Origin: Escherichia coli
Lineage (GTDB): Bacteria; Pseudomonadota; Gammaproteobacteria; Enterobacterales; Enterobacteriaceae
Length of the DNA stretch: 64,000 nucleotides
NCBI RefSeq assembly: GCF_013122565.1
Contig: NZ_CP053258.1
Direction: 5' to 3' (one strand)
In this document: one piece after another, positions 34,684-60,871 of the stretch
Position numbering within the stretch: position 1 is the stretch's first letter
Layout: every line of letters begins with the position of its first letter
The notes under the pieces: model-generated
What the model was told of the DNA's origin: nothing
Database searches by the model: none
The model's input: the letters and a program-made list of their open reading frames with translations, nothing else
Translations under genes and position numbers: made by a program

Positions 34684-34729
34684 ATAATAAAAAGCCGGGA
34701 AGATTTTATTTCCTACCCGGCTTTTAACA

Positions 34730-35179
34730 TTAATGCTTCAAGGGGAATGACTTCATCAGTAATTCTTCTAAAGAAGAATATAAAAATTCCATTTCATAAG
34801 AGTCATGCAGAAAAACAAATATCTTACCATCTGTATTCATAAGAATAGGGTTTCCGCAGCCATCATCTGAAATAGCATAAAATGAATTCAATATATTTTT
34901 ATCAAGATCTTTATATATTTCCCTAAACTTCAGAGTAAGATCAACTACAGAAGCCTTTCCTACTAAGGAACCATTTTTAAAGGCATGTATAGCTATGCCA
35001 CCAAAGGCCCCACCAAATTTCTTAATAAACTCAATATATTGTATATTGAATTTAATATTTAATATTTTTTCAGCCTGAATGATCTCCTCATCAGAAGCTG
35101 GTATACCATATAGGACCATATCTTGGTCAGATGTTATCTCATCTCTGACTCTTGCTAGCAATTCTTCATTCATACGCAA
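34730..35179 (-). CDS. Predicted immunity protein for orphan toxin 4 (SMI1/KNR4, SUKH-like)
   Basis: 149 aa, AT-rich, directly downstream of an rhs C-terminal toxin module; IQYIEFIKKFGGAFGG motif typical of SUKH immunity proteins. Confidence 0.6.
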   Translation of the reverse strand: MRMNEELLARVRDEITSDQDMVLYGIPASDEEIIQAEKILNIKFNIQYIEFIKKFGGAFGGIAIHAFKNGSLVGKASVVDLTLKFREIYKDLDKNILNSFYAISDDGCGNPILMNTDGKIFVFLHDSYEMEFLYSSLEELLMKSFPLKH

Positions 35180-36297: not shown

Positions 36298-36376
36298 CTG
36301 CCCCGTGCGACTGGTCAGCCAGCCGCTGCGATCATACGCAAAATGCCCCCATCCGCATGCAAGCAGTATTTATCCT

Positions 36377-36682
36377 TTAGGAAAAGAGATTTATAGCTTT
36401 CTCTTGAAGTTCTATACCTATATCCTCAAGTTTGATCAGCTCGTCCTTACTGTACATTCCCTCCCGAAAAGAAAACATTCCATATACATCCATTAGTGCC
36501 AATCCTAAAACTTTTGGAACCATAATTTCATCAGCATATATTTCCGCCAAAAAATCCAGCGCCTTATATAATTCTTCAATTTCATTATCAAAAAAATCTT
36601 TCTTGAGTCTTAATCTAACAGGTATTGAATCATCTCCTAATAATTTATCGACCACTATTTTCAATGCAATCTCTTTATCCAT
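36377..36682 (-). CDS. Predicted immunity protein for orphan toxin 3
   Basis: 101 aa, AT-rich, immediately downstream of orphan module 3. Confidence 0.55.
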   Translation of the reverse strand: MDKEIALKIVVDKLLGDDSIPVRLRLKKDFFDNEIEELYKALDFLAEIYADEIMVPKVLGLALMDVYGMFSFREGMYSKDELIKLEDIGIELQEKAINLFS

Positions 36683-36698
36683 ATATCATTTCCTGTCT

Positions 36699-38315: not shown

Positions 38316-38488
38316 CTAGCTGTTCAGATGGTGAATTTAACTACACCTTCTGGTTATCACCGTATTCAAGTGCCGCGATGCAACTACTGGGAAACTACAC
38401 TCATTCTCTTATTATTTTTAGAAATTTTCATCTATTAAATAATACACATGACCGATATTATTTAACCCTGCTGGGTATAACTGAAAAA

Positions 38489-39340
38489 TTATTTATTTTT
38501 AATTAAATTCATTAAATCCCAAACATTGCTATCATAATGATTGAAACCTTGAATCACAAGATAAGACAATGCTTTCATATCCAACAAAAATCTGATTTTC
38601 CCGTCTATAATTTTTGTATTTTCCGTTATAAACAATCGTTCCAATTTAACAAGATTACTTATTTTAGCTACGCTTGGAATATCACCCATTTTTGAAAAAG
38701 ATATTTTTTTAATTGAAGGTAATTTACTTACATCTTCAATGATTGACACTGCCATTTTTTTGCATAAAGATAAAGACACTTCTTCTATATTTTTCAAACC
38801 ATCTAAAAAAGTCGTGTCCGAAGCCTTAGATAATCCAGATAACTTGATGCTCCTTAAAGTCTTGATAGATGATAAATTAGGGATTGTTTGAATATTGCTA
38901 TTTTTTATCTCTAATGATTGCAAGAATGATCTCCCCGCAACATGCTCTTTTTTTTCTTTAAAATCTATCAATGTTATTTTTTCCAGAGTTCTGTGATTAA
39001 ACAAATTATCAATTCCATTTCGACCTATTAATACAGCCTCTTTTAAAAATGGGAAATATGATAAATCAAGTCTCATTTTATCATCATTCAAAAGATGGAT
39101 GAGTTGTATTTTTTTCAACGAATACAGTTGTGATATATCCTTTATTTTATTGCCTGTGATATATATTTCATTAATGAAATTAATTTCATCAAGAAATGAT
39201 AAATCAGTTATAAGCGGTGACAAAACCAACCCGTTAACTTTCTTTTCCTTCATCGTGTCAACAATATGACTTGTATCGTCATGCTTTTCATACACAAGGA
39301 CACGACTTCCCCGTACACCATAATTTTCCACTAGTCTCAT
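38489..39340 (-). CDS. Leucine-rich-repeat protein (283 aa), positioned as the immunity gene of orphan toxin 2
   Basis: AT-rich; repeated L..L..L.L..N.I LRR-like units (LSFLDEINFINEIYITGNKIKDISQLYSLKKIQLIHLLND..., IQTIPNLSSIKTLRSIKLSGL); 20 bp downstream of orphan module 2. Confidence 0.55.
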   Translation of the reverse strand: MRLVENYGVRGSRVLVYEKHDDTSHIVDTMKEKKVNGLVLSPLITDLSFLDEINFINEIYITGNKIKDISQLYSLKKIQLIHLLNDDKMRLDLSYFPFLKEAVLIGRNGIDNLFNHRTLEKITLIDFKEKKEHVAGRSFLQSLEIKNSNIQTIPNLSSIKTLRSIKLSGLSKASDTTFLDGLKNIEEVSLSLCKKMAVSIIEDVSKLPSIKKISFSKMGDIPSVAKISNLVKLERLFITENTKIIDGKIRFLLDMKALSYLVIQGFNHYDSNVWDLMNLIKNK

Positions 39341-39359
39341 ATATTTCCCCTTAAATAAA

Positions 39360-40820
39360 TCAACACTCCCCCTTCACTCTAAAATCTTGATCTGAAACAT
39401 TTCCTGTATTTGGTGGTCGTTTTTCATTACTGGTTACTCCTCTTCCTCCATTTTTAGCTATTTTCATTGCCTCTAAATTATTTAGCCATTGTTTACTAAT
39501 TCCAGCATATTTATCAAAATTCAACGAATCCAACATTGCCTGAGTTAACTTTCCACTTCGGGCATGTTGCAACATTCTCTGATATAGATTTTTTGTTTGA
39601 CCTGCATACATTTTACCCGCACCTTCATCAAAAAACTCATAAATTGCTTGCCCTTTATATTTTGCAGTAACATCTCTTATTTGTTCTAAAAAATCACTAG
39701 CGAGTCTTACTAATCCCCAAGGATCAATCCACCTCAGCGGATTCGGCGCATACCTGTAAAGATTCAGCCCACCCCGGATCGAAATCGGGTCCTGGCTTAT
39801 GAACCTTCCGCACTCCGGCGCATAATACCTGAACAGATTGTAATGCAGCCCCGTCTCTTCATCATAATACTGCCCCGGCAGCCGCAGCGGTTGCTCAAAG
39901 TACGCCCCGCTGTTGCTGATGTCGCCCCGATTTTCTCCAAATCCCGCCTGGTAGCCCGCCCACACCAGCCTCCCGTCCGGCGCGGTCACCTCCTGTACCG
40001 TGCCCGTCAGGTCCGTGTGGTAATACCAGATTTTTTGACTCTCTCCGCGCCCGGTGATGGCCGCCACTGGCGTGTACGGCTGTTCCGCGTCGTACAGGTA
40101 TGTCCGCTTTCCCTGCCACGTTGTCTCCTGCAACAGCCGGAACCCTTCCCACACAAACGTCGTCCGCCGCTGTTCCCTCTGGACCGTATGGCGGCCATAT
40201 GTCGCCTTGCTGATGCGCCTGCCCAGCGCATCATACTGATACCGCGTCTCGCTGTTGCTGCTGATGACCCGCGTTAACTGGCCCTGCGCGTTCCACTCCA
40301 GTTGCTGGTCCCTGCGCTCTGTCAGTTCGCCCCATTCGTTATAGCGGTAACGGTCACGCCCGTAGCCCGGCAGGCGGTTATCCATCACCGCGCTCTGATA
40401 CTCGTCCGTCAGCAGATTGCCCGCTTTGTCGTAATAATAATGGTCATGGTCGTACATCTGCCCCGTGCGGCTGGTCAGCCAGCCGCTGCGGTCATACGCA
40501 AAGCGCACCGTGTCCGCCTGCATGTGGTGCAGCCGTTCCCCTTCTTTCGTCGGGGTGAGCGTCACTTCCGTTATCTGGTCAAGACGGTTGTAGCTGAAGG
40601 TCCGTGTACTGTGCTGCGTGTCACTGCGCAACAGGCGGCCCAGCGCATCACGCTCCTGCCGCTCATTACGCCCCCCGCCTTCTGTACCCTGCGTCTGGAT
40701 GATGACCGGATACCCGCCCGCATTCAGCGCCAAATGGCTGAGAGAAGCGGGATTTGAGATCGGCACGGGCGTTACCGTGAAGATCTCGGAGGGATGTCTG
40801 ATCCTGCTTGCGGATAACAA
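39360..40820 (-). CDS. Orphan rhs C-terminal toxin module 2: 5'-truncated Rhs core with an internal deletion, plus GIY-YIG nuclease-like tip
   Basis: Core homology starts at ...[14 protein letters not shown] (40727); lacks ~130 codons between the two YDRSGWLT repeats; after DPWGL the tip reads AIYEFFDEGAGKMYAGQTKNLYQRMLQH (GIY...YIG...R...H pattern). Confidence 0.65.
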   Translation of the reverse strand: MLSASRIRHPSEIFTVTPVPISNPASLSHLALNAGGYPVIIQTQGTEGGGRNERQERDALGRLLRSDTQHSTRTFSYNRLDQITEVTLTPTKEGERLHHMQADTVRFAYDRSGWLTSRTGQMYDHDHYYYDKAGNLLTDEYQSAVMDNRLPGYGRDRYRYNEWGELTERRDQQLEWNAQGQLTRVISSNSETRYQYDALGRRISKATYGRHTVQREQRRTTFVWEGFRLLQETTWQGKRTYLYDAEQPYTPVAAITGRGESQKIWYYHTDLTGTVQEVTAPDGRLVWAGYQAGFGENRGDISNSGAYFEQPLRLPGQYYDEETGLHYNLFRYYAPECGRFISQDPISIRGGLNLYRYAPNPLRWIDPWGLVRLASDFLEQIRDVTAKYKGQAIYEFFDEGAGKMYAGQTKNLYQRMLQHARSGKLTQAMLDSLNFDKYAGISKQWLNNLEAMKIAKNGGRGVTSNEKRPPNTGNVSDQDFRVKGEC

Positions 40821-40914
40821 CGAAGTACAGGAACTGCGCAGGGAGCTTTATCAGGTTAAACAGGCAGTTAAGGGGATGCGGGACGGGATGTTTAGTGTGC
40901 TGAACGAAAGTTAA
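40728..40914 (+). pseudogene. SymE-like gene, 5'-truncated copy (3' ~190 bp plus hairpin duplicated from 34497-34725)
   Basis: ...SAKWLREAGFEIGTGVTVKISEGCLILLADNNEVQELRRELYQVKQAVKGMRDGMFSVLNES nearly identical to the 34450 copy; upstream part of the track ORF is antisense rhs sequence; perfect hairpin at 40923-40955. Confidence 0.55.
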
Positions 40915-40975
40915 ATAATAAAAAAGCCGGGAAGGTAAATAAGCTTCCCGGCTTTCCACAACAATTTTAACTTAA

Positions 40976-41464
40976 TTAATCATAAGCATCGCCGTAATTT
41001 TCATATTTCCAATAAATATATTTACCACCTGAGCTATATAATTTATGCAATAATTCTGTAAAAGTCATTGCAATAATTGGACAACTACCTACAACGCCAT
41101 GTATCTCATAATTGCTATCATAACAGCGTCCATTTCTTTCTGTAGAAAAATCAATGGATAAATAATCATTATTATCGGTCCTGCAAATTAAGTACCATGA
41201 AGATGATATATCATCCTCACATGGCTCACCAACTATAAATTTATTTGCCTGTAATATTTCATTATTTTTCAAAATAGTGAAGGAGATTTCCTGCTCTTCA
41301 GAGCAAAACAATTTTATTCCATTACATATTTTGTAAAAACGAACAACATCATCAGGATATTTTAAATAATCAGATGGTAATAAAGGCAAATTACCATCTG
41401 GTGGAATAACTTCACATCTGTTATCATTTTTTATCAAGTCAAGTAATTCATCAATGCCATTCAT
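40976..41464 (-). CDS. Predicted immunity protein for orphan toxin 1
   Basis: 162 aa, AT-rich, immediately downstream of orphan module 1. Confidence 0.55.
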   Translation of the reverse strand: MNGIDELLDLIKNDNRCEVIPPDGNLPLLPSDYLKYPDDVVRFYKICNGIKLFCSEEQEISFTILKNNEILQANKFIVGEPCEDDISSSWYLICRTDNNDYLSIDFSTERNGRCYDSNYEIHGVVGSCPIIAMTFTELLHKLYSSGGKYIYWKYENYGDAYD

Positions 41465-41473
41465 ATTACCACC

Positions 41474-43312
41474 TTAAAAAATAACAGTATCAAACTTCCC
41501 AGAGTATATAAACTGGTTCAATGCCCGGTAATATGCTTCCCTACTGGCAACAGGAACATTTGCGGCATCAAACATTCGTTCAGTAAGATCTTTCATTTCT
41601 CTGCTACTTACTGTTGTCCAATCCACTTTCCCACCAACTCTTCTTCCGGTTTTCTGCTCTAACCAATCTCTATATACTTTTTTTGTTGCAGCATGATTAG
41701 CCTCGGATAATGCAATTGTTGGTGACTTTGAAGGATATTTCCCTCCATAAGATGGCACATTCTTAGACATCCAAATATCAAGCACACCATGATGGTTTTC
41801 TAAAGAGGAATTAATTGGTCGATAAGGAACAACATCAAACTCTTTAACTTCACCGCACTTAAGTCCAAGGGGATCTATCCACCCCAGCGGATTCGGCGCA
41901 TAAGCATACTGGTTCAGCCCACCCGCCAGCCCTATCGGGTCCTGGCTTACGAACCGCCCGCACTCCGGCGCATAATACCTGAACAGATTATAGTGCAGCC
42001 CCGTCTCTTCATCATAATACTGCCCCGGCAGCCGCAGCGGCTGTTCAAAGTACGCCCCGCTGTTGCTGATATCGCCCCGGTTTTCGCCAAATCCCGCCTG
42101 GTAGCCCGCCCACACCAGCGTCCCGTCCGCCGCGGTCACCTCCTGTACCGTGCCCGTCAGGTCCGTGTGGTAATACCAGATTTTTTGACTCTCTCCGCGC
42201 CCCGTGATGGCGGCCACCGGCGTGTACGGCTGTTCCGCGTCGTACAGGTATGTCCGCTTTCCCTGCCACGTTGTCTCCTGCAACAGCCGGAACCCTTCCC
42301 ACACAAACGTTGTCCGGCTTCGTTCTCCCCGGTCCGTATGGCGGCCATATGTCGCCTTGCTGATGCGCCTGCCCAGCGCATCATACTGATACCGCGTCTC
42401 GCTGTTGCTGCTGATGACCCGCGTTAACTGGCCCTGCGCGTTCCACTCCAGCTGCTGGTCCCTGCGCTCTGTCAGTTCGCCCCATTCGTTATAGCGGTAG
42501 CGGTCACGCCCGTAGCCCGGCAGGCGGTTATCCATCACCGCTCCCTGATATTCATCCGTCAGCAGGTTGCCCGCTTTATCGTAATAATAATGGTCATGGT
42601 CATACATCTGCCCCGTGCGGCTGGTCAGCCAGCCGCTGCGGTCATAGCTGAACACCAGGCAACCGCGCAGTTTGTCATTGATGCCGCCGACTTCACCGTC
42701 TGCGTTCCAGATATAGTCCCGCGCTGTCACGCTGTCGCTGTGTGACGGGGGTGTGGCTGTCTGCTGTGGGTTCTGGCTGCCGCCTGGCAGGCTGCGCTGC
42801 CAGCTTAACCGGTTGTCGGCGTTGTAGCCGCTGAACGTCGCCAGTTTCCCCTGGGTGCGCATCACCTGACGGTGCAGACTGTCACGCTCATATTCACTGA
42901 CCGTGATACCGTCCAGTGCCGTCTGGAGCAGATGTCCGCTGCCGTAGTAAAGATGGCTGAGGTGCTGCCCGTTCGGTAACGTGATGTCGGTGGGATTGCC
43001 CAGCGCGTCACGCTGATATTTTATGCTGCCGTGCACGCTGTGCTCTGCCGTCAGCCACCCGCTGCGGTCATACGCAAAGCGCACCGTGTCCGCCTGCATG
43101 TGGTGCAGCCGTTCCCCTTCTTTCGTCGGGGTGAGCGTCACTTCCGTTATCTGGTCAAGACGGTTGTAGCTGAAGGTCCGTGTACTGTGCTGCGTGTCAC
43201 TGCGCAACAGGCGGCCCAGCGCATCACGCTCCTGTCGCTCATTACGCACCCCGCCTTCTGTACCCTGCGTCTGGATGATGACCGGATACCCGCCCGCATT
43301 CAGCACAAACAT
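41474..43312 (-). CDS. Orphan rhs C-terminal toxin module 1: 5'-truncated Rhs core (~1.6 kb retained, homology up to ~43468) plus unique ~130-aa tip
   Basis: Core identical in register to the main rhs from ...[12 protein letters not shown] to DPLGL; tip KCGEVKEFDVVPYRPINSSLENHHGVLDIWMSK... (possible xHH nuclease-like motif, weak). Confidence 0.65.
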   Translation of the reverse strand: MFVLNAGGYPVIIQTQGTEGGVRNERQERDALGRLLRSDTQHSTRTFSYNRLDQITEVTLTPTKEGERLHHMQADTVRFAYDRSGWLTAEHSVHGSIKYQRDALGNPTDITLPNGQHLSHLYYGSGHLLQTALDGITVSEYERDSLHRQVMRTQGKLATFSGYNADNRLSWQRSLPGGSQNPQQTATPPSHSDSVTARDYIWNADGEVGGINDKLRGCLVFSYDRSGWLTSRTGQMYDHDHYYYDKAGNLLTDEYQGAVMDNRLPGYGRDRYRYNEWGELTERRDQQLEWNAQGQLTRVISSNSETRYQYDALGRRISKATYGRHTDRGERSRTTFVWEGFRLLQETTWQGKRTYLYDAEQPYTPVAAITGRGESQKIWYYHTDLTGTVQEVTAADGTLVWAGYQAGFGENRGDISNSGAYFEQPLRLPGQYYDEETGLHYNLFRYYAPECGRFVSQDPIGLAGGLNQYAYAPNPLGWIDPLGLKCGEVKEFDVVPYRPINSSLENHHGVLDIWMSKNVPSYGGKYPSKSPTIALSEANHAATKKVYRDWLEQKTGRRVGGKVDWTTVSSREMKDLTERMFDAANVPVASREAYYRALNQFIYSGKFDTVIF

Positions 43313-43517
43313 CCGTATCAGACCGTCCGGGCGCTGTTCTCCCGTCAGCCGTCCGTCCGCATCGTGACTGAACCGGTAAAGCGCTCCGTTGCCGTTGCTC
43401 AGACTGGCAATCCATCCCTCCGCGGTATAATGCCAGCGCGTCTCCCGTTTCTCTTCATCCGTGTGGCACGCCAGTTAACATACGTCTACTGACAAAACCA
43501 TTAGTCCAAACAAAATC

Positions 43518-48474
<4,957 letters not shown>

Positions 48475-48497: not shown

Positions 48498-50711
48498 TTA
48501 TTCAGAAACGTCCGGGGTAGGTAACGGGGCAATATCATCCGCAGTCATGGCTGTGCCGCCATCCGGATTCATATCAATGCCACTGCCAATGAGTTGCATA
48601 ACATCGCTGGTGTGCAGTAAAAGTTGTTTTCCGCAAAACTCAATCGAGCCATCCTTGTGTAATACAAGCGCTGCATTGCCGCAACGAAGGGTAAATTGAT
48701 CGCCAACATCCAGACGATATGTCGTTCCGACATTGATGGTTTGAGCCAGTTTGACGGAAAGACCATCATTTTTTGTGATGGTGGCATTACGGTCTTCTCC
48801 CACGCTGATGGTTTCATTTTTGACAATGGTTTTTATGCGATCGACCATGACCGTGTGGGTTTCATTGTTTTTTACCGTGGTATTGAGGTCTTTTTCCGCA
48901 TGGAACTTCACCTCTTCTGCCCCCGTTTTATCGTCAAAGCGCAGCATGTTTCCGTTGGTCGGCCCGCCATACAGCGAGTGGCTGAATATCCCGCTCTGCG
49001 AGGCCATACCCGGCAGTCCCCACGGCGGCATGGTGTCCTGGTTATAGGTGCGCCCTACAATGATCGGTAAATCCGGGTCGCCGTTTTTGAAATCCACCAG
49101 CACTTCCTGACCGATGCGCGGGATCTGGATCATGCCGAATCCTTTCCCTGCCCACGGATAGCTGACGCGGATCCAGCAGGAGCTGTTTTCGTCATTATTA
49201 CCGTAACGATCCCAGCCAAACTGCACCTTCACCCGTCCATATTTGTCCGTCCAGATTTCCTGCCCCGCCGGGCCGGTGACGATGGCGCTCTGCGGGCCTT
49301 TGGTGTGGGGTTTGCTCAGGGTTCGCTGTGGGCGGTAAACTTCGCTGGTTGGGTGCAGTTCAAACGTGGTGACATAGGTAAAATGCTGATCCTGGCCGCT
49401 GTGCTGCGCATTGTCCCGTAAAAACAGCGTGGTCTGTACCAGCAGGTATTCCTGATTAATTTCTGCCGTCGGGTGATTCATCAATGTAAAGGTGTACCCG
49501 GTCATGAGGGTACGGATATGACCGGCCCCATGTGCCCGGCTGCCTGGGCTACGCTGCGCTTCCATACGAATACGCGTCAACATCTCGCCTTCGCCCGTAG
49601 TGAAGTAATCACCAGGCCATTCGTAATGCTCGTATTCAGCATGACCGGTATCACGCGGACTGGCCACGGTACTTTTAAGCAGCGAACGAGGCTTCATAAA
49701 ATCAAAATCGTCCATCACCCACTTTCCAGTACGCAGCCTCTCACTGGCCGTAATGGTGTGAATAAATTCCTTATCCAGTTTCAGCCCTTCCTGGTGCCAC
49801 TCCACCAGTGGCGAGTCAGGGCACGCTTTATGACCATTGATGGCATCCGCCAGCACCAGCGTGTGGCTGTTCTCGCTGTGCTCAAACCACCAGTAAATTC
49901 CCCACTCCTGCATCAGGCGCTGGATGAAATCAAAATCCGTTTCACCGTACTGTACCTGCCAGGCACGAGGTGGATAATTTTCCACCAGCCGTTTTTCCAC
50001 CGGAAAGGAATATTCATCCAGTACTTCATCGAGAATATCCACCACGGTTTTATTCTGGAACGCTTTGTAGTCGCTGGTGTGGGTCAGCAGTTTCAGCCAC
50101 GGTTCAATGCGTAATTCATACGTTACCGAGCGGCCCTCATGGCCCACCACCCGCGCCGCTGTCACCAGCCCGCTGATATGCCGTTTGCCGCCGCCGTCCA
50201 GTTCGATATTGACGCACAGATCTTTGCCCACCATGGGCTGAAGCGGCAGGTTAGCAGCGGGGGAAACGTACCCCAGGTTCAGGGCGTCCGGCGTTTTAAG
50301 CTGTACTGTGTAGGAAAACAGATTCCCAAGCCCTTCCGAACCATTCATGCCTGCAAACAAAAGCATCTGCGGCGGCACCGCACTACCACTTACTGTGACG
50401 TTATGCGCCCCCGGACCACCTGCAGCAAGCGACGCCGCCGCATCCTGAACTGCACCAGCCATATCCGATATCCCTGCTGCGGCGGCTGCGGCTTGCGCAG
50501 CAGCTACTGCGGCTTTAACCAGACCTGACGGTTCCGGCAACGCACCAAACAGGTCCGCCGCTGCCTGTTCTACCATCTGCTCGGCTGCATCAGCTACATC
50601 GGTTGCGGCTGAACCAGGGCTTATACCACCACTTTCGCCAGCTATTGGTGGTGTGGTGATGACGGGTCCACCGTTTCCAACTGGTTTATTACCCGTAGAT
50701 ACAAAACTCAT
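48498..50711 (-). CDS. vgrG: T6SS spike protein VgrG (737 aa as the longest ORF, includes a ~100-aa Ala/Gly-rich N-terminal extension; true start uncertain)
   Basis: gp27/gp5-like VgrG body ([25 protein letters not shown]..., C-terminal ...[19 protein letters not shown]...); N-terminal [22 protein letters not shown]...[10 protein letters not shown] segment precedes the conserved start of the VgrG fold. Confidence 0.85.
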
Positions 50712-50735
50712 GATATTTGCTCCTTTAATACCGGA

Positions 50736-51122
50736 TTAAAATCTAGCCCCTGGTGGCCAAAAAATATAAGTAATAACTCTCCATTGCCCGTCTTTATAAT
50801 GAAACCAACATGTCAGATTCAAATCCCCCTGCAAATTCCAGAACATTTCCTTAATAGGAACATCTTGAAATTCAGGATCTGTTATGCGATAAGTTTGATT
50901 CAAGCCGATATAATACTCACCAACAAATTTATATCGTGGCCTCACGAACTCATGAGCAGGCGGCCCATATTTTTTCATAAAAAAGATGTCATTACTTCCA
51001 TCATGTATATCATTTTCTTCATAATATTTGGTGGATTGAGCAACTGCAGAAGGCTTGAAAACATTCACTGTAGTTATGTAAGTTATTGAAAGAAAAATCA
51101 CTATAATGCAGAAAAATTTCAT
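50736..51122 (-). CDS. Predicted periplasmic immunity protein 1 (signal peptide; paralogue of 52819..53181)
   Basis: 128 aa, MKFFCIIVIFLSITYITTVNVF... signal peptide; shares ...EFQDVPIKEMFWN..DLNLTCW.HYK.GQW.VI...WPPG..F with the paralogue; 4-nt overlap with upstream effector gene. Confidence 0.6.
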   Translation of the reverse strand: MKFFCIIVIFLSITYITTVNVFKPSAVAQSTKYYEENDIHDGSNDIFFMKKYGPPAHEFVRPRYKFVGEYYIGLNQTYRITDPEFQDVPIKEMFWNLQGDLNLTCWFHYKDGQWRVITYIFWPPGARF

Positions 51123-51820
51123 TTGGTTACATTCAATAAAGTAAATTTAGTTTCAGGCATTATGACATTCAACGTTATAGTTGCGTTTTTAAGGTATCGT
51201 TCCCGAAGCTCCATTCCCACATTCATCAACCCACTAATATCTCCAACATACGGAGACGAAGAATCATAATCATCATCTAAGTAACCAAGTACATGTCCGG
51301 CTTCATGAGGTATATTTACTTGCAACGTATTGTTACAGTTAATACATTTCGCTACTTTTTCCAGGTCCGCTGAATCAACATGAACCGTACTGTTTTTAAA
51401 ATCAACATATGTTCTTAAATCAGCACCAGGCAAAACCTTTGTTGCAATAACCAACCAGTCTTCATTCTGAGATGCAGAAATTATTCTTACATCAAAAGGC
51501 AAAGCTTTACCCTGAAATTTTTTAGCGAACTCAGATTCACCGGAAACAGAATAAGTTATTTTCCCATTCCATGCCTGCTGAACAGATAAATATATCGCTC
51601 GCATAAAAATAGCTTTTTCCCATATAGTCCAGTCATCTGTAACGGTATTATCCTTATACCACTCATACTTCCATCTTATCACAGCCGTAATCGAACCAGT
51701 ATTTTGATTTAATAAATACGTCCTCCTACCATCCTTATGTATAATGATATCGCCATCAATATTTGTTTTTTCATAGTATTCGGCCAGCAAACTATTCTCA
51801 TCATATTTAAGCTTGGTCAT
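51119..51820 (-). CDS. Candidate T6SS effector 1: HExxH zinc-metallopeptidase-like protein (233 aa)
   Basis: HEAGHVLGY motif plus conserved block LMNVGMELRERYL shared with the 268-aa paralogue; AT-rich; no signal peptide; followed by a signal-peptide protein. Confidence 0.6.
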   Translation of the reverse strand: MTKLKYDENSLLAEYYEKTNIDGDIIIHKDGRRTYLLNQNTGSITAVIRWKYEWYKDNTVTDDWTIWEKAIFMRAIYLSVQQAWNGKITYSVSGESEFAKKFQGKALPFDVRIISASQNEDWLVIATKVLPGADLRTYVDFKNSTVHVDSADLEKVAKCINCNNTLQVNIPHEAGHVLGYLDDDYDSSSPYVGDISGLMNVGMELRERYLKNATITLNVIMPETKFTLLNVTK

Positions 51821-52032
51821 TTTACTCTCATTAAATAATAATTATTTGTATCGAAAATATTATTTTATATATTACGAGTATTGCCCCTTCAGCCGCAGCG
51901 CATCCACATACCGTCCTTCACTGCAGGGCAAGATTACGAAAGCCCGCCCCCCGCAAGGACTGACGCGAGGTAGTTTCTGTCCATGGCTGCTTTTCTCATC
52001 TTACGTCTTAACCCTGCCTTGGTTTCGCCGTA

Positions 52033-52794
52033 CTACACCTGCCAGGCGCGGGGGGGATAATTTTCCACCAGCCGTTTTTCCACCGGAAAGGAATATTCAT
52101 CCAGTACTTCATCGAGAATATCCACCACGGTTTTATTCTGGAATGCTTTGTAGTCGCTGGTATGGGTCAGCAGCTTCAGCCATGGCTCAATGCGTAATTC
52201 ATACGTTACCGAACGGCCCTCATGGCCGACCACCCTCGCCGCCGTCACCAGCCCGCTGATATACCGTTTTCCGCCACCGTCCAGTTCAATGTTGACGCAC
52301 AGGTCTTTGCCCACCATGGGCTGAAGCGGCAGGTTAGCAGCGGGGGAAACGTACCCCAGGTTCAGGGCGTCCGGCGTTTTAAGCTGTACTGTGTAGGAAA
52401 ACAGATTCCCAAGCCCTTCCGAACCATTCATGCCTGCAAACAAAAGCAGCTGCGGCGGCACCGCACTACCACTTACTGTGACGTTATGCGCCCCCGGTCC
52501 ACCGGCAGCAATCGACGCCGCCGCATCCTGAACTGCACCAGCCATATCCGATATCCCTGCTGCGGCGGCTGCGGCTTGCGCAGCAGCTACTGCGGCTTTA
52601 ACCAGACCTGACGGTTCCGGCAACGCACCAAACAGGTCCGCCGCTGCCTGTTCTACCATCTGCTCGGCTGCATCAGCGACATCGGTTGCGGCTGAACCAG
52701 GGCTTATACCACCACTTTCGCCAGCTATTGGTGGTGTGGTGATGACGGGTCCACCGTTTCCAACTGGTTTATTACCCGTAGATACAAAACTCAT
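52033..52794 (-). pseudogene. vgrG: vgrG 5' fragment (N-terminal ~255 codons duplicated; body replaced)
   Basis: Near-identical to the first ~780 bp of vgrG at 49935-50711, including the Ala-rich N-terminal segment; homology breaks near 52017-52036. Confidence 0.75.
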
Positions 52795-52818
52795 GATATT
52801 TGCTCCTTTAATACCGGA

Positions 52819-53181
52819 TTAAAATTTGGATCCTGGCGGCCAATAAACTCGGGATATAACTATCCATTTACCATTTTTATAATGAAGCCAACATGTTAAA
52901 TTTAGATCTTTATTAACATTCCAAAACATCTCCTTAATAGGAACATCTTTAAATTCAGGATTATTTGAAGGGTAAGTCCGTTCTATGCCACCATAATAAA
53001 TACCTACAAAATCATGCCTTGGGTTTATAAAATAATGTTCAGGAGAACCATATTTTCTCACTAGTGAATCTTCATCATCCCCCCACTGAACATCTTTGTT
53101 ATGCATCTCACTGGCAAAAATATCTAGAGTTACAAGCAATATCAATAACGTAAAAAATAGAGCGATTTTCTTCTGGATCAT
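52819..53181 (-). CDS. Predicted periplasmic immunity protein 2 (signal peptide; paralogue of 50736..51122)
   Basis: 120 aa, MIQKKIALFFTLLILLVTLDIFA signal peptide; conserved C-terminal block with paralogue. Confidence 0.6.
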   Translation of the reverse strand: MIQKKIALFFTLLILLVTLDIFASEMHNKDVQWGDDEDSLVRKYGSPEHYFINPRHDFVGIYYGGIERTYPSNNPEFKDVPIKEMFWNVNKDLNLTCWLHYKNGKWIVISRVYWPPGSKF

Positions 53182-53984
53182 TTTATTACACTCGCAACAG
53201 AAAACGTAGTTAAGGGATATACTAAATTCAAGTCAATACAGACACCTTCCAGGTAGCGTTCCCGAAGTTCCATCCCAACATTCATTAACGCGGCAGTATC
53301 TATTTTATATTTAGACACAGGCTTACCAAACTTATCAAGTTCATATTCATCCTCCAGATAACGAATCATATGTCCAATTTCATGAACTATATTTACCTGA
53401 TAAAAACCACATATTGACTGATTCTCTGGAGCACATTTTTCTGATAACGAAGTATCTTTAAAATAAAAATGAGCAAACCGATTTTTCCAGTTAACATAAG
53501 GCCTGCCATCATCATTACCAGGAACGGTTCTTAATACGTCTACATTCCAGTGTTCTTTTTGATGGACCGGAATCATATTTATGCTGAAAGGCAATCTTTT
53601 ACTCTTGAATTTCTCAGCAAAATCAGAGTCCCCTGAGACAGATAAAAATATCTTATCATTCCATCCATAACAGATTGCAGAAAATGATTCATATATAAAA
53701 CTAACTTCATCCAGGTATGTCCAGTTATCTCCTACATTGTTCTGATTCACCCAGTTAAATTTCCATCTCATTAATAATGCAATGTCGCCTGTATCACTAT
53801 TCAGGATATATTCGCCATGTTCTGTATTCATCCTGAGACACTTCCCATCTTCTACGGTGTCAGGGCAAAACTTATGCATGAGTTTAATAAAGAATTCATG
53901 CGATAGATTTATTTTACTCTCTCCAACAACACCATCTACATGTGTTGTGAGCGAACCAGATTTATTCCCTGAAGAAGAACTCAT
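53178..53984 (-). CDS. Candidate T6SS effector 2: HExxH zinc-metallopeptidase-like protein (268 aa)
   Basis: HEIGHMIRY motif and LMNVGMELRERYL block; first ~10 codons and the 25 bp upstream resemble the vgrG 5' end (MSSSSGNKSGS vs [11 protein letters not shown]). Confidence 0.6.
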   Translation of the reverse strand: MSSSSGNKSGSLTTHVDGVVGESKINLSHEFFIKLMHKFCPDTVEDGKCLRMNTEHGEYILNSDTGDIALLMRWKFNWVNQNNVGDNWTYLDEVSFIYESFSAICYGWNDKIFLSVSGDSDFAEKFKSKRLPFSINMIPVHQKEHWNVDVLRTVPGNDDGRPYVNWKNRFAHFYFKDTSLSEKCAPENQSICGFYQVNIVHEIGHMIRYLEDEYELDKFGKPVSKYKIDTAALMNVGMELRERYLEGVCIDLNLVYPLTTFSVASVIK

Positions 53985-54311
53985 GCTATTGACTCCTTTA
54001 ATACTGGGGTAGAGATTTAGCCCACGACAGTCGTATTCCTGTTTTTTACATCCAATAAAATAGAATATTAATAAATTAGGATAATATTTTTACTTTACTC
54101 ACTCTACTTTCAATCTGAGTTCTCCGTACAATCGGGTTCTGACATTGAACCTTCCGACTGAAATACACCACTCCCCCCTCTATCCAGTCGCAACGCATCC
54201 ACATACCGCCCCCTTGCTGTTCTGCTGCCAGAACCATCCATGCCCCTGCTGCGCCTGCGTTAACATTTTTGCTAGCCAGCACGGTCACGGCAGGCAATTC
54301 CATGACATGTA

Positions 54312-54773
54312 CTACTCATCCGTACAACCCAGCCCCCGGCGCTGAACCACTTCACTGGCAAACGTTGCTCCGGTTTTTTTCATTATTCCCTGCTGGATTT
54401 TTTGTAACTCCGGGTATACAACCCGCTCACATTCATTTATTTCCCATATGTCACCCGTCTTAGGACTAACCGAAAACAACCCTAAATAGTCTGTTGCTCC
54501 AGCAGTCGGCGTATCATAGCCAAGACTAAAATCATAATATCCGGGATGAGGCGCATTGCCCTGACCATCCTGTAAATCTCCATCAATAAAAATCCCTTCC
54601 AGCGATAAATTATACTTTTGGTGCCTGAGTACAATAATAAGCAGTTTTTCCGCCTGTGCTTTCGTCATCCCTTCGCGGTTTATATCTGATAAATTAAATT
54701 CAGACGTATTCCCCTGAACGTAGCAAACCGCAGAGGCAAGAAGAAAAAAAACAAATATTATTTTACGGGGCAC
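54312..54773 (-). CDS. Predicted periplasmic immunity protein for the glucosaminidase-like effector (signal peptide)
   Basis: 153 aa, MPRKIIFVFFLLASAVCYVQG signal peptide; overlaps the upstream effector stop. Confidence 0.55.
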   Translation of the reverse strand: MPRKIIFVFFLLASAVCYVQGNTSEFNLSDINREGMTKAQAEKLLIIVLRHQKYNLSLEGIFIDGDLQDGQGNAPHPGYYDFSLGYDTPTAGATDYLGLFSVSPKTGDIWEINECERVVYPELQKIQQGIMKKTGATFASEVVQRRGLGCTDE

Positions 54774-55228
54774 GCCATTCTCCTTCCGACCATAATAATA
54801 ATGTCAGCAGTTTTTTTGGCATAATTATCTGTTCCGCCTGTGCTACTATCTCCAGAATTAAATCCGGCCTTTACCAGAGCATCACAGAAAGCCAAAGCAT
54901 CCTTTATGTCTCTGGCTGCATTACCATATTTTATTGCAAAAGATCGTGCACAGATTGAAAAAGACGGAAAAGTAGCCACCCGGGTTTTCTTGTTACCGTG
55001 CGGACGGATTTCGCCTGACTGAAATGATGCAGGGGCATGCAGGGAGAAATAGTTGTTATATTCCCTGGCAATACGGCCTGTACCATACTGGCTCTCCGCC
55101 GCGGCAAGCCCCAGAATATTTTCCACAGGAACATTAAGTTGTTTAGCGATTAATTCACATTCTTTCAGATGCTGCTGAACAAACCTTACTGCATTAACAT
55201 CATTACAGGCTTTGTCATAAGACCCCAT
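54758..55228 (-). CDS. Candidate T6SS glycoside-hydrolase effector (GH73 / FlgJ-type glucosaminidase-like, Tge-like)
   Basis: 156 aa; ILGLAAAESQYGTGRIAREYNNYFSLHA matches the GH73 catalytic-Glu region pattern (A..ES.wG.......NN.FG); no signal peptide; followed by a signal-peptide protein. Confidence 0.55.
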   Translation of the reverse strand: MGSYDKACNDVNAVRFVQQHLKECELIAKQLNVPVENILGLAAAESQYGTGRIAREYNNYFSLHAPASFQSGEIRPHGNKKTRVATFPSFSICARSFAIKYGNAARDIKDALAFCDALVKAGFNSGDSSTGGTDNYAKKTADIIIMVGRRMACPVK

Positions 55229-55255
55229 GATCCACTACTCCTTATCTGATTATTT

Positions 55256-56029
55256 TTAATGCTGCCGGATATCCAGCCGCAACGCATCCACATACCGCCC
55301 CTCGCTGTTCTGCTGCCAGAACCAGCCCTGCCCCTGCTGCGCCTGCGTCAGCATTTTGTCCGGCCAGCCCGGCCACGGCAGGTGGCGCACACCGGGCAGT
55401 TCCACTACCGGCACGTCCGGCAGGCCGGTGAGTTCCCGGCTACGCTGCGGTACACGTCGTAAGCCGCGTAGCCACTGCGCCCAGCGCGGCCCCGGTCGCC
55501 ACATCGCCCAGAGCTGGTCTGTCTGCTCCGCCAGTCGACCGCAGCGTTCTGTCTGTGGTGAGACATGAGCTGCCGTCAACTGCGCCAGCCAGTACAGCCA
55601 GCCCTTTGTGTCATCCAGGCTCTCTTCCAGCCATTCCCGCCCGGCACGCTGGTAAATCACCAGTGGCCACGACCTGCCCGTACTGTCACGTGAGGCGGTC
55701 AGCACCCCGGTCAGCCACTCATCGCGCCCGCCAATGGGGAGAAATCCCGGCGATAATACAAAGCTCCACGGTAGCGGATGGTGTTCCGGCACCTCCGTTT
55801 TCTCGCGCGGTGACAGGTGCATCCAACCGTCATTTACTCCGGTTTTCGCAGCATCCGTTCCTTCCGGCAGAACAATATGCCGCCCCTGTCCCAGCCACGT
55901 CTGCTGGTTCAGCCACGCCTGCCACACCTGCCCATCGTTCGCGCTCACCCGCCAGCGCACGTAGTCCCGCTGATCCGGCAGTCTGCCGAACATCGCCGGA
56001 ACCGATACCACCGCAGCCCGGCGCATCAC
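55256..56029 (-). CDS. tagF: T6SS-associated protein TagF-like (DUF2094)
   Basis: 257 aa directly downstream of and overlapping tssM; 3'-end sequence recurs as ~30-100 bp remnants at 54196-54300 and 51888-51912. Confidence 0.6.
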   Translation of the reverse strand: MMRRAAVVSVPAMFGRLPDQRDYVRWRVSANDGQVWQAWLNQQTWLGQGRHIVLPEGTDAAKTGVNDGWMHLSPREKTEVPEHHPLPWSFVLSPGFLPIGGRDEWLTGVLTASRDSTGRSWPLVIYQRAGREWLEESLDDTKGWLYWLAQLTAAHVSPQTERCGRLAEQTDQLWAMWRPGPRWAQWLRGLRRVPQRSRELTGLPDVPVVELPGVRHLPWPGWPDKMLTQAQQGQGWFWQQNSEGRYVDALRLDIRQH

Positions 56030-59000
56030 AGCGCTCGCTCCGGGCAGGCGAAGCGTTGCAGTAGCCCACGGTTCACCGGGTCAAAATCCCGTCCTGCGGT
56101 GATTTCCAGCACCACCCGCCGCCCGTCAAAGCTATATTCAACCTGCTGTGTTCCCCGTACCGCCGTCTCCTGCGCGTTACCCGCATCCAGCAGGTGAAAC
56201 AGCGCCCACGGTCCGTTAGTCAGCAGCGTCGAGGTGTCCTGGCGGATGCGCGGGCTGGCGGTGATTTCCGCCATTGAGCCGTTGCGCGGCCCCGGCCAGT
56301 TCACTTTCAGCGGTCTGACCGGGCCGTGAGCGTAACGCAGCACCTGACCGTCGATATCAATCACCAGTTCAGTGATTGCAGGGTCCATATCCACGACGCG
56401 GACCTGCATCGCCCAGGAAAACTTTTTCCCGCCTTCACCGTTAAAAAAAACGCTGCGGATCTGTTTCGCCTCCTGAAACGGCGTCAGGTCCGGCCCCTGT
56501 AAGGTCATGTTGCCTTCGGTCGGTTTGTAGCGCCACGGGTTGCTGGCGGTGTCCGCCAGCGGGGCCAGTTGCTTCGTCCAGAACGCATCCAGCACACCGC
56601 CGCTGGCAAAGATATGGTTAAAATCGTCCGCGCTGACCTCCTGCGGGCTGTCGGTAAAGGGGTAGCGCCCGTCAATAGCATCACGGCACTCATCGCCAAT
56701 CACCGCTTCCATCTGCGCGTTCAGCACTTCACCGGTGCCGGCGTTGATTTTGCGCGTTCCCTGCTGCGTGAGATCCAGCAAAATATTTTTCAGCGGTGCG
56801 GGCAGTTTTGCCGCCTCCAGTTGCAGTTTATCCGCCGCCGAAATACGGCCAGGTAATGTGCTCGCTGCCAGCGCGCTGTCGGCGATGGTGAGCTGGGTGT
56901 AATATTCATTGAGCATTGTCAGCAGCGAATTTAACTGCGGCGCGCCACCAGTCTGCCCGCTGTCTGTCCGCCCGGAAACCACTTCCCGCAAGGCGGCGAA
57001 ACGGTCATCCACCAGTGATTTCTCCAGCCGCTCTTCCGGGTGGATGTCCTGTAACAGCTTTGCCGTCTGCCCCGCTTTTCCCACATTGCCGGAGAGCCGG
57101 TCCTGCGCACGCTGGGCCATCTGCTTTTGTCTGGCCTGCGCATCCAGCGGCGGCACCAGCGTGGTCTGCTCCACCACCGCTTTACTCAGGCGCATCAGCG
57201 GGGAATCCGGCGAGGCCAGGGTACGCAGCACCTGAAGGTCATACGCCAGCCCGGGACTGCCGTCTTCCCCGGCACTGTTGATGCTGTGAATACTTGCCAG
57301 AAAATCCTGCCAGCGGCGGGCATATTCAGCCAGGTACAGGCGGCGTACCTCACGGGTAACCGGGAGTTCCTGCCCCGGCAACTGGCTCATCACAATATCC
57401 GTTGTTTTTTTTTGCGCGTTTTCCCGGCCCATCACCCAGGCATCGTCCGCTGATGCGGCTGCGACAAACTCCGACAGCCGTTTGTCGAACAGTTCCCGGT
57501 AGCCTTCGCGAGTGAAGATGCCGGGCACGCCCCTATCCAGCGGCGCGCCATCCGTGCGGACAAAAACCGTTCCCGCATCCGCGCCCACAGCGCGAACCAG
57601 CGAAAACTCCTGCGGTGCTTCGCTCTCCATGGAAGCCAGGGCTCGAGTGTAGATACGCTCGGTGCTGGTATGGCCGTCAAGGAAGGCTCGCGCCTGGCGG
57701 ATCAGCCCCTCATCTTTTTCCCAGGGCGAATGCACCACGCGGCTGCCGTCAAACAGGGCATCGATATGCTCCAGCACGGCGGCGCGACCGCCGAACTCCG
57801 CCACGCTGTCGCGGTTGTCCAGGTCGTTCAGCACCCAGGCGTGGATCTCCGCCGCGTTGTATTTATCCTCGTGGTCCTTATCGAGGTTCAGCAACAGATA
57901 AACATGCAGGGCGTCATAGGCGGCTTTGCTGTCCTGACGCGCAATCGCATCCGAAAGCACGTATTCCATGCGTTTCACCAGCGGTGGCAGCAGTAACTGG
58001 TCCAGCAGGCGGTCATACAGGGATGCGACGCTCTCCATCACCGGCGGAACGCTGTAAAGACCATAACGCCAGGCCAGCGGCGGCGAGTCCGGGTCCAGTC
58101 CCGGCCAGGCAGAGAGCGCCCGTGCCTGGTTCAGCAGGGCCGGAACAGGCTGCATAGCAGGTTTTCCGGTATAGGCTTTGACATCACCATCCAGTTGGGT
58201 CGTCCGGCTGGCGATTTCATTCAGATAACCGCTGTTACCCTGCTGGCTGCCCTGCATTCCCTGCCACAACCAGAAAGCCAGCGCCAGTACCAGCAGATGC
58301 CCGCCAGTGCGCAGCAGGCGGTAACGCCAGGCCCACTGAAGGTTCGGCTCCACCAGGTGCGCTTCGCGGAAGATAAACTGCGTCAGTAGATCGTGCAGGA
58401 AATAGCTGCGGTTGCCGTCCGGCAGGGTATGGGATGGGGAATCAGCCTTCCCTTTGATAGCACGGACAAAACGCTGCCAGATGCCCGTCTTGTCAGCCAC
58501 GGCGTCTGCCTGCGCCTGCGCGGCGCTGGTAAAAAATACGCCGCGCAGGGTGTTGTTAAGCTGGGTGGCGTCAAATTTTGAATCGAGGAAAATCTGCTCA
58601 ATGGCTTCCAGCAGCGGCGCACCCAGCGCGGCAAATTCACGCGGGAAGCGATAGAGCCGCTGGCGGCTTTTAAGGTCGTACTCTTCCTGCAACCGGGTAT
58701 CCAGCCCCTGATCCAGCCGCAGGGTCAGGTTTGCCAGTTCCTGGCTACAGAGCGCATGCAGCGACTGCGGATCGCTGGCGTGACGCCTGCGGCTGTATGG
58801 CAGAGTAAAGCCCCAGACCTGGGCGCGCAGGTGGCTGGTCAGCCCGTGGAAATACTCCGTAAAGCCCGGCAGCAGATCCATCTTGGTGACAACCAGATAG
58901 ACCGGAAAACGAATACCCAGCGTCTCCCGCAGTTCCGCCAGCCGCGCACGCAGGGCCGCACAGGCAGCCAGCCGTTCCGCCGGGGACTGCGCAGTCAGAT

Positions 59001-60187: not shown

Positions 60188-60871
60188 CTAATGGGCGATG
60201 AGTAAATTAGAGAAATGCAACCAGTTGTTGACAATAAAATTGCCATAGCTGGTATCTTCCTTTATTTTCTCCAGAGTAAGCGACATACCCCGGTTATAAC
60301 GGGCACCAATAATTCTTATCTGCTCTTTCGTCAGGTGTGGTAAGGAGGACTGAAATTCATCTCTTTCAGCTAATTTATAAATATGTCTGGCCACAAGTTG
60401 AATATTAAAAATATCATGCTGGAGGCAATTTGCCAGTTCACGCAATTGAGAGGTATCCATTTTTGACTCATCAAGCCCAAGCGTTCTGGCTGCGGTTCGC
60501 AATTGCATACTCACTGCACCAAAAGATGTTTTTTCTGGTCTCGAAGTTATTGTGATATGTTCATCAATCCACTCAGGCCCACTCCAGTCAATAGTCCGAG
60601 CATCAAATGCCAGCATATCTACAATACTGGGATCCCCCCCGACTTCTATCCAACACACACCTGCCAGTAAAGGTGCTGGCAAATTATATGTATTGGCAGC
60701 CGACGTTATCAGAAGATGGTTATGTTTTACCCAGCCATCTTTGAAATAACGCCCAAACGGTACACCACCGCCCCATTTTTTTGGCGCTAATTTCCAGAAA
60801 AGAAATTCGGTCACGCCCCATACCGGTGAATGATTCGATGCATTGCAGTCCAGATTATTCATTTTTCTCAC
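60188..60871 (-). CDS. Unknown 227-aa protein inserted between tssL and tssM (candidate effector or peptidoglycan-remodelling accessory protein)
   Basis: AT-rich (~40% GC) in a GC-rich operon; contains LLAGVCWIEVGG and FGAVSMQLRTA, loosely reminiscent of lytic transglycosylase / Cys-hydrolase motifs; no confident family assignment. Confidence 0.5.
   Translation of the reverse strand: MRKMNNLDCNASNHSPVWGVTEFLFWKLAPKKWGGGVPFGRYFKDGWVKHNHLLITSAANTYNLPAPLLAGVCWIEVGGDPSIVDMLAFDARTIDWSGPEWIDEHITITSRPEKTSFGAVSMQLRTAARTLGLDESKMDTSQLRELANCLQHDIFNIQLVARHIYKLAERDEFQSSLPHLTKEQIRIIGARYNRGMSLTLEKIKEDTSYGNFIVNNWLHFSNLLIAH

Follow-up and report, generated by a model that had tools for sequence, protein, structure and literature searches.

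Effector-immunity units stacked between tagF and vgrG of an Escherichia coli type VI secretion locus, probably exchanged through a repeated vgrG 5' end

How does a type VI secretion system (T6SS) locus come to hold the 5' part of its vgrG gene twice, with a toxin cassette between the copies? The question is raised by a 64,000-nucleotide stretch of Escherichia coli DNA (the window; contig NZ_CP053258.1 of assembly GCF_013122565.1) that carries part of a T6SS cluster, with all the relevant genes on the minus strand. A first-pass annotation of the window had described near-identical copies of the vgrG 5' region around the effector-immunity pair eff1/imm1, and had suggested that cassettes are gained and lost by recombination at this place. 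We find that units made up of the tagF 3' end, an effector gene, an immunity gene and the vgrG 5' end were probably stacked through one illegitimate junction associated with an insertion sequence (IS), and then exchanged by homologous recombination. The features from which the argument starts are listed here (ORF, open reading frame; RBS, ribosome-binding site).

50711-48498, minus strand: full-length vgrG, 737 aa
52794-52033, minus strand: vgrG', a truncated vgrG ORF of 253 aa, with CAG>TAG at codon 254
51119-51820, minus strand: eff1, predicted zinc metallopeptidase effector of 233 aa, motif HEAGH
50736-51122, minus strand: imm1, predicted periplasmic immunity protein of 128 aa, overlapping eff1 by 4 nt
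53178-53984, minus strand: eff2, predicted zinc metallopeptidase effector of 268 aa, motif HEIGH
52819-53181, minus strand: imm2, predicted periplasmic immunity protein of 120 aa, overlapping eff2 by 4 nt
49939-50760, minus strand: repeat copy A (imm1 3' end, RBS, nt 1-773 of full vgrG)
52022-52843, minus strand: repeat copy B (imm2 3' end, RBS, truncated vgrG')

Local alignment of the two copies yields a direct repeat of 822 bp without a single gap, identical at 791 of 822 positions (96.2%), with 2,083 bp from start to start; blastn within the window agrees and finds no third copy there. The bracketing of eff1/imm1 by near-identical vgrG 5' copies is thereby borne out: the pairwise alignment is collinear, at an identity far from the level of less than about 85% that had been named as speaking against the claim. 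The earlier coordinates (49935-50711 and 52017-52794) stand to within 5 nt, the distal end having been drawn 4-5 nt too long. The edge placed at the ATG does not stand, as the repeat extends 49 nt further upstream through the RBS into the ends of imm1 and imm2. It consists of vgrG nt 1-773, a 24-nt spacer with the RBS and the final 25 nt of the immunity gene. Identity is uneven along its length, at about 99% in the ATG-proximal 520 nt and about 93% in the distal 300 nt. Beyond the repeat a weaker similarity of about 78% persists to 50878/52961, because the C-terminal halves of imm1 and imm2 are homologous.

The differences between the copies within vgrG comprise 22 synonymous and 4 nonsynonymous changes (pN/pS 0.063). 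This dominance of synonymous changes implies that they accrued while both copies were functional vgrG alleles in separate lineages, not in a decaying duplicate; by their substitution pattern the copies look like imported functional alleles. The neighbouring genes tell of a discordant divergence: the vgrG 5' copies share 96% of their nucleotides, whereas Eff2 and Eff1 share 39% of their residues (E 3e-55) and Imm2 and Imm1 44% (E 8e-42).

The truncated copy itself ends at a TAG (52033-52035) that is specific to the window and is one of the four nonsynonymous differences; in seven related loci the vgrG' ORF stays open and runs into the IS remnant described below. Against the VgrG family profile TIGR03361, VgrG' scores 83.6 bits, where the cutoff is 186, with residues 112-253 covering profile positions 7-139 of 513. 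It contains only part of the gp27-like domain, whereas a VgrG/TssI protein is recognised by complete gp27-like and gp5-like domains. Could the 253-aa product nonetheless be selected for, for example as a regulator or decoy? The open frame in the relatives, the intact RBS and an identity of about 96-99% to the functional allele are what one would expect of it. We give this reading hardly any credence and have rejected it: the partial domain falls below the family cutoff, the window has its premature TAG, the frame is disrupted elsewhere too (a frameshift in R32_14_1F, deletions in remnant loci), and exchange with the full copy accounts for the conservation. Judged by its sequence, vgrG' is a pseudogene scar.

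The full-length VgrG has an Ala/Gly-rich N-terminal extension of about 100 aa (50711-50400, residues 1 to about 105) ahead of its gp27-like domain, and its TIGR03361 match begins at residue 112, after this extension. The VgrG of a distant locus, L023, is without it; there a 17-codon mini-ORF with the start MSFVSTGN is followed by a 633-aa VgrG that begins at the equivalent of window VgrG residue ~102.

What lies between the end of vgrG' and eff1 bears on how the duplication arose. Four further features are needed at this point.

51924-52021, minus strand: 3'-end remnant of an ISAs1-family (H-repeat) IS, 98 bp
51890-51923, minus strand: tagF'', a tagF 3' relic of 34 bp, 88% identical over 34 nt to 55274-55307
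54181-54294, minus strand: tagF', a relic of 114 bp, 88.6% identical to 55270-55382
55256-56029, minus strand: full-length tagF (TIGR03373 TagF, E 5e-10)

The homology to vgrG stops at 52022, and the adjoining 98 bp (52021-51924) are ISAs1-family sequence: over 2,500 E. coli genomes have transposase genes of this family whose 3' ends match them at 94-98% identity. Elements of this family are classically associated with Rhs elements. Mapped onto K-12 ydcC, the 98 bp correspond to the final 88 nt of the transposase gene and 10 nt past its stop, and they end precisely at the IS terminus ...CTTGCCCTG, as checked against K-12 and against the full element in L023. Lacking the full transposase gene and both terminal inverted repeats, this is a remnant and not an element. 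Its terminus is abutted by tagF'', and beyond that the sequence continues as the native spacer between tagF and eff1, collinear with E. coli 06-00048 (locus L008), where the tagF-eff1 junction is intact. Because the IS terminus, the tagF 3' end and intergenic sequence of the 06-00048 type follow on from one another, the right edge of the junction marks a genuine insertion of the IS into the 3' end of tagF. At the left edge, vgrG nt 773 meets the IS interior, the two sharing a single base of microhomology, and this join is therefore illegitimate. Base for base, the window and seven aligned E. coli loci have the same breakpoints, and the junction therefore formed once.

The IS remnant and tagF'' are scars that the first-pass annotation overlooked, and they qualify its proposal. 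The junction of the duplication is not itself a product of homologous recombination; it is an IS-associated illegitimate junction of single origin. Moreover, the conserved upstream gene tagF is a second recombination flank, shown by its 3' relics, and was likewise missed. Of these relics, tagF' forms with the true tagF 3' end a pair of direct repeats that flank a further cassette (glucosaminidase/Tgi2PP), and in related genomes it is annotated as an incomplete TagF or as a 'cytoplasmic protein' pseudogene. The window thus holds three units, tagF-Tge-Tgi, tagF'-eff2-imm2-vgrG' and tagF''-eff1-imm1-vgrG. It has what characterises a stacked array: tandem polymorphic effector-immunity modules beside T6SS genes, relics of the flanking genes, and modules each of which occurs elsewhere alone or in the primary position. 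A separate small change, seen on comparison with seven loci, is a 15-bp deletion specific to the window, between short direct repeats in the AT-rich spacer upstream of eff1 (51840-51860).

How the first junction was made is the one step in which a competing account departs from the explanation that we favour. By that account, an illegitimate exchange between sister chromatids (IS in tagF with vgrG nt 773) duplicated the unit in place, and later homologous recombination replaced the upstream unit, including the IS-disrupted tagF, with eff2 and eff3 alleles. It would suit a right IS end that is a genuine transposition junction in tagF and a left end that breaks off inside the element with a single nt of microhomology, as well as the single origin of the junction and the variation of the upstream cassettes between genomes. 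It calls for an additional step, the repair of tagF by allelic replacement, and the intermediate that it predicts, tagF::IS upstream of two identical eff1 units, is not seen in any genome. We regard such an origin as possible, though not the one to be preferred.

Where else does the junction occur? We took a 1,551-nt stretch spanning it as a query against 5,426 complete E. coli genomes, and 33 of them cover it in full; the 34th genome with more than 80% coverage, 06-00048, is without the junction and has an eff1-type cassette alone, in an undisturbed tagF-eff1-imm1-vgrG locus. Upstream of the junction the window has eff2-imm2. In OZ197100, PapRG-06-5 and R32_14_1F (loci L002, L003 and L010) the place is taken by eff3-imm3 with a glucosaminidase cassette, and in AR_0077 (L005) by eff3-imm3 with Tae4/Tai4. 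The upstream cassettes are also found by themselves: eff2 is the sole metallopeptidase cassette beside a full vgrG in VE-T9, LHM10-1 and CP52E, and the eff3 cassette stands alone by a full vgrG in 2017.09.02CC. In Enterobacter an eff1-type cassette directly follows tagF.

Two simpler accounts of the repeat meet their evidence here. One is a plain tandem duplication of effector gene, immunity gene and vgrG 5' end in place, the units then diverging without any exchange between strains. The units are indeed collinear, and eff1 and eff2 are homologous, as are imm1 and imm2. Divergence in place would nevertheless have to produce 39-44% protein identity in the effectors and immunity proteins and 96% nucleotide identity in vgrG 5' within one and the same unit, and a pN/pS of 0.06 is unlike that of a pseudogene drifting in place. 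Besides, the downstream module lies behind unrelated upstream cassettes in other genomes, and each cassette type also stands alone beside a full vgrG. We consider this account very improbable and have rejected it. The other is an assembly artefact, for instance a vgrG paralogue that was joined wrongly or collapsed. Assembly of the region is difficult, to judge from short-read contigs encoding an identical Eff2 that break after imm2 at the start of the repeat. Yet 31 positions set the copies apart and their flanks are distinct, and both architecture and junction recur in independent complete genomes from several laboratories, which leaves an artefact a probability close to nil. The two short-read loci concerned (L013 and L014) have contigs that stop within ~25 nt past imm2; this fits assembly breaks induced by the repeat, so that draft genomes would under-report the architecture.

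Indirect signs of recombination come from pairs of genomes that differ by exactly one repeat unit. VE-T9, LHM10-1 and CP52E share the order tagF-Tge-Tgi-tagF'-eff2-imm2-vgrG, and each equals the window minus one unit, the VE-T9 match spanning 5,619 bp compared with a query of 7,701 bp. Their single vgrG begins at the ATG with the variants of the truncated copy, which in VE-T9 persist to nt 651 (window 50061) or beyond, and carries those of the full copy from about nt 740 (49971) on, the chimera expected as the product of a crossover inside the repeat. The second pair is AR_0077, with eff3-imm3-vgrG'-IS-eff1-imm1-vgrG, and 2017.09.02CC, with a single vgrG; their Eff3 and Imm3 proteins are identical. 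They stand in the same chimeric relation, the switch falling at nt 507-519. Within genomes, the two copies in AR_0077 are identical to each other over nt 85-477, where they are unlike the single-copy genome, and the window's copies share a variant block at 50253-50325 that is absent from both copies of other genomes. Such blocks common to both copies of a genome indicate conversion or exchange. With two single/double pairs, a chimeric vgrG in each and different crossover intervals, the proposal that cassettes are gained and lost by recombination at the vgrG 5' repeat is supported by the related genomes.

Taken together, these observations suggest the following course. Cassettes would travel with relics of the conserved genes on either side, from the 3' end of tagF and the 5' end of vgrG. 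An ISAs1-family IS would have entered the 3' end of tagF in a locus of the tagF-eff1-imm1-vgrG type. A segment beginning inside this IS would then have formed an illegitimate join with vgrG nt 773 in a locus where a cassette was already present. If the segment's other end was resolved by homology in vgrG, the outcome would be a complete second cassette and a truncated vgrG'. The segment may have been imported DNA, through homology-facilitated illegitimate recombination, or may have come from unequal sister-chromatid exchange followed by allelic replacement upstream. From then on, RecA-type homologous recombination would have used the 822-bp repeat as its substrate. A crossover between the copies of the repeat would delete IS-eff1-imm1, a double crossover with foreign DNA would add a module behind any resident cassette or swap the upstream cassette, and gene conversion would homogenise both copies.

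Several points weigh against this reconstruction. Gain and loss are indistinguishable, as deletion from a double locus and insertion into a single one give the same chimera. The window is one sequence, and no recombinant is seen in it directly. Its history is read from relatives just ~97.5% identical to it, and its own combination of eff2 with eff1 is absent elsewhere (0 of the 5,426 complete genomes). Finally, the part given to the IS in forming the junction is inferred from a remnant of 98 bp.

The first-pass annotation had also noted that the start of eff2 resembles the start of vgrG, RBS context included. This likeness is real, and it concerns one further feature.

53961-54023, minus strand: relic of an immunity gene 3' end, RBS and vgrG start, fused to the eff2 5' end

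In the in-window blastn search, about 65 nt at the eff2 start match the vgrG start (50685-50749) with 76% identity (E 7e-6), and the local alignment score of 30 lies well above the maximum of 17-19 given by 2,000 shuffles and 608 window tiles. The aligned stretch takes in immunity-like last codons with a stop (GGGCTAGATTTTAA versus GGGCTAAATCTCTA), an AAAGGAG RBS and about 11 first codons, the start peptides being MSFVSTGNK and MSSSSGNK. Homologues of Eff1 and Eff3 are without a leader of the vgrG-start kind, and the extra N-terminal residues of Eff2 have no match in them. We read the leader as a probable relic of an older imm-vgrG' junction fused to eff2. A translation-initiation region that has converged or is kept by selection could look similar, inasmuch as the best-conserved core is the RBS (TATTAAAGGAG) with ATGAGT, which selection for expression could maintain. 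That explanation seems unlikely to us, for the likeness extends about 39 nt upstream into immunity-gene codons and the stop and about 27 nt into the coding sequence, with one 3-nt gap; eff1 and eff3 homologues do without the leader, and Enterobacter loci have vgrG-start relics after their cassettes as well.

In one of these Enterobacter loci, L020 (Enterobacter sp.), tagF is followed by an eff1-like gene, an immunity gene, a vgrG-start relic, Tai4 and Tae4; next come part of an immunity gene, carrying vgrG-start sequence for the second time, the 3' relic of tagF, a further gene pair and vgrG. At a greater distance, L023 (and L022), with 77-79% nucleotide identity to the window, has two effector-immunity cassettes and a near-complete ISAs1-family element between them. 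The cassettes that flank the IS in L023 belong to the same metallopeptidase family as Eff1 and Eff2, and the 3' end of the element matches window 51924-51961. Stacking of tagF 3'-effector-immunity-vgrG 5' units with ISAs1 joints is therefore not unique to the window. The features of these two loci, in their own coordinates, are as follows.

L020, 8050-8133, 10317-10421 and 11732-11836: three copies of immunity 3' end, RBS and vgrG start, two of them relics
L020, 10448-10539: tagF 3' relic
L023, 5540-6909: ISAs1-family element with DDE_Tnp_1_assoc and DDE_Tnp_1 ORFs and inverted termini CAGGGCAAGAT/ATCTTGCCCTG

A different fate is seen in degraded islands at aspV, an annotation pattern found in about 28 genomes. 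In the three that we inspected (ET151, L007; JMF1, L009; LR-31, L011) most of the T6SS is lost, and vgrG'-IS-eff1-imm1 is kept together with the first bases of vgrG. Such islands may have kept the immunity gene, and possibly the toxin gene too, once the weapon was gone. They adjoin rhs fragments and ISAs1 pieces.

What do the cassettes encode? Scans of Eff1, Eff2, Imm1 and Imm2 against Pfam, NCBIfam and PADLOC gave no family match. A word-indexed homologue search returned 8 close clusters only, all "hypothetical"; the family becomes visible by exhaustive search with a hidden Markov model (HMM) profile, which yields 377 representative clusters (at 50% identity), mostly of free-standing proteins of about 215-280 aa. 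Across 80 diverse members H172, E173, H176, D183, Y185 and G202 (Eff1 numbering) are invariant. The family consensus is HEFGHxxG...DEY, and Eff2 has the equivalents of the first five of these residues. A few members carry LysM or PG_binding_1 domains, several give weak matches to reprolysin-like, M6 or M64 families, and the predicted fold of Eff1 and Eff2 is metzincin-like. A sequence search of the Protein Data Bank (PDB) found nothing significant, the best hit (E 0.03) being just the HEFGH...DEY motif of an M64-type peptidase. Assignment of the effectors to M64 or M12 was considered and rejected, the PDB profile matches being restricted to the metal-binding motif (E 0.03-0.08).

Distant members, on contigs of insufficient length to reveal T6SS linkage, retain an overlapping small gene downstream. 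In the E. coli and Enterobacter loci the pair is invariably found between tagF and vgrG. The Imm1 and Imm2 translations begin with a signal-like hydrophobic segment. Eff1 and Eff2 are accordingly predicted, from sequence features, to be zinc metallopeptidase toxins that act in the periplasm, each neutralised by a secreted immunity protein encoded just downstream, and they are possibly directed at the cell wall. A literature search found no specific description of a T6SS effector from this family, which is weak evidence of novelty.

The remaining genes of the cluster place this array in its surroundings.

59892-56026, minus strand: tssM
60188-60871, minus strand: ORF of 227 aa between tssL and tssM
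55228-54758, minus strand: glucosaminidase effector of cassette 1, 156 aa
54773-54312, minus strand: Tgi2PP-type immunity protein of cassette 1, 153 aa
48474-48031, minus strand: DcrB/DUF1795 (Eag-type) gene, directly after vgrG
48010-43871, minus strand: PAAR-Rhs gene, after the DcrB/DUF1795 gene
yafV-ivy-fadE-gmhA: neighbours of the distal part of the T6SS cluster in the window

Following the direction of transcription, one meets tssJ, tssK, tssL, the 227-aa ORF, tssM, tagF, the glucosaminidase effector, the Tgi2PP-type immunity gene, eff2, imm2, vgrG', eff1, imm1, vgrG, DcrB/DUF1795, PAAR-Rhs and the orphan rhs ends. The gene tagF, the conserved upstream flank of the variable cassette region, carries the annotation 'TagF domain protein' in relatives within E. 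coli, and PF09867 TagF_N is recorded for it in L013 and L014. The same two loci have cassette 1 in an identical arrangement, with PF01832 Glucosaminidase and PF21576 T6SS_Tgi2PP on record; the window's effector gives weak FlgJ-type matches in NCBIfam. Relatives annotate the three genes from vgrG onward as type VI secretion system Vgr family protein, DcrB-related protein and RHS protein. The 227-aa ORF has no match in scans of Pfam, NCBIfam and PADLOC, and may represent another accessory gene or effector gene. A promoter and terminator scan of 50600-56200 found sites not in excess of shuffled controls, and we therefore do not claim that the cassettes are transcribed separately. Among relatives in E. 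coli, the matching cluster, or its remnant, sits between tRNA-Asp (aspV) and yafV. The fadE-ivy segment reaches a top identity of 98.2% among the complete genomes compared, and the window thus comes from a poorly sampled E. coli lineage.

Downstream of the main PAAR-Rhs gene, at 34700-45900, lies a classical orphan rhs array. It comprises at least 4 rhs 3' fragments with differing C-terminal ends, each followed by a small immunity-like ORF, and the fragments have in common direct repeats of the rhs core of 0.8-1.6 kb, 92-97% identical.

The value of the locus lies in its scars: every junction retains a dated one (tagF 3' and vgrG 5' relics, an IS end), which allows both the order of events and their mechanism to be reconstructed and put to the test. 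From the 822-bp repeat one expects eff1-imm1 to be lost spontaneously at a measurable rate, and recombinants should die by sibling killing, which makes the locus a simple experimental system for the stabilisation of toxin/immunity arrays. As to annotation, vgrG' is a scar of stacking, as are the small fragments labelled "hypothetical" or "cytoplasmic protein" in many E. coli genomes, and unannotated HExxH proteins beside such scars are candidate antibacterial toxins. The degraded islands that keep eff1-imm1 bear on the idea that retained immunity genes protect against neighbours. A wider reading, which we offer tentatively as one possibility, joins two propositions. The tagF-vgrG interval of the aspV/SPI-6-type enterobacterial T6SS would be an integrase-free cassette array whose units are exchanged across genera and whose illegitimate joints are repeatedly provided by ISAs1-family elements, while selection would act against recombinants that have lost a unit, since these are no longer immune to their siblings; and Eff1, Eff2 and Eff3 would form an undescribed, widespread family of peptidoglycan-directed, metzincin-like toxins that act in the periplasm. 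Truncated-vgrG duplication in E. coli and the tagF-vgrG arrangement were not found described in the literature, again weak evidence of novelty.

How does this locus compare with known systems? The closest parallel is in Vibrio cholerae, where displacement of T6SS effector-immunity modules leaves arrays of orphan immunity genes, their stacking being ascribed to homology-facilitated illegitimate recombination anchored in a conserved flank and to frequent homologous recombination (Kirchberger et al. 2017, PMC5361080). In both, polymorphic modules adjoin conserved T6SS genes, the modules are close to those in the primary position of other strains, and relics of former occupants persist. Unlike the V. 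cholerae arrays, the window retains whole effector-immunity pairs and not immunity genes alone, and its array lies upstream of vgrG. It is anchored in the structural gene downstream, at its 5' end (along with the tagF 3' end), which leaves a vgrG' pseudogene, and an IS remnant marks the illegitimate junction.

With respect to the toxins, the nearest known case is the C-terminal domain of Pseudomonas aeruginosa VgrG2b, a T6SS metallopeptidase toxin (PMC6899460). The Eff1-type proteins share with metzincin-type peptidases of this kind the HExxH motif, a predicted metzincin-like fold and a predicted periplasmic action countered by a secreted immunity protein. They differ from VgrG2b in being free-standing proteins of about 230 aa and not VgrG extensions, and from the metzincin-type peptidases in that Eff1 and Eff2 have no significant Pfam, NCBIfam or PDB match.

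Orphan Rhs and contact-dependent inhibition (CDI) toxin-immunity arrays offer the third comparison, and the window itself has one such rhs array downstream. As far as the account in PMC5361080 of Koskiniemi et al. 2014 and Jackson et al. goes, those modules too are bracketed by repeats of conserved-gene fragments, between which recombination deletes or activates modules. On the same account the repeat there is the rhs 3' core, whereas in the window it is the vgrG 5' end; and the window's toxins are free-standing cargo and not C-terminal domains, so that recombination adds or removes a cassette and does not re-tip a protein. Set beside these systems, the locus is a well-preserved new example of a known mode of T6SS toxin-repertoire evolution, with a candidate new toxin family as a by-product.

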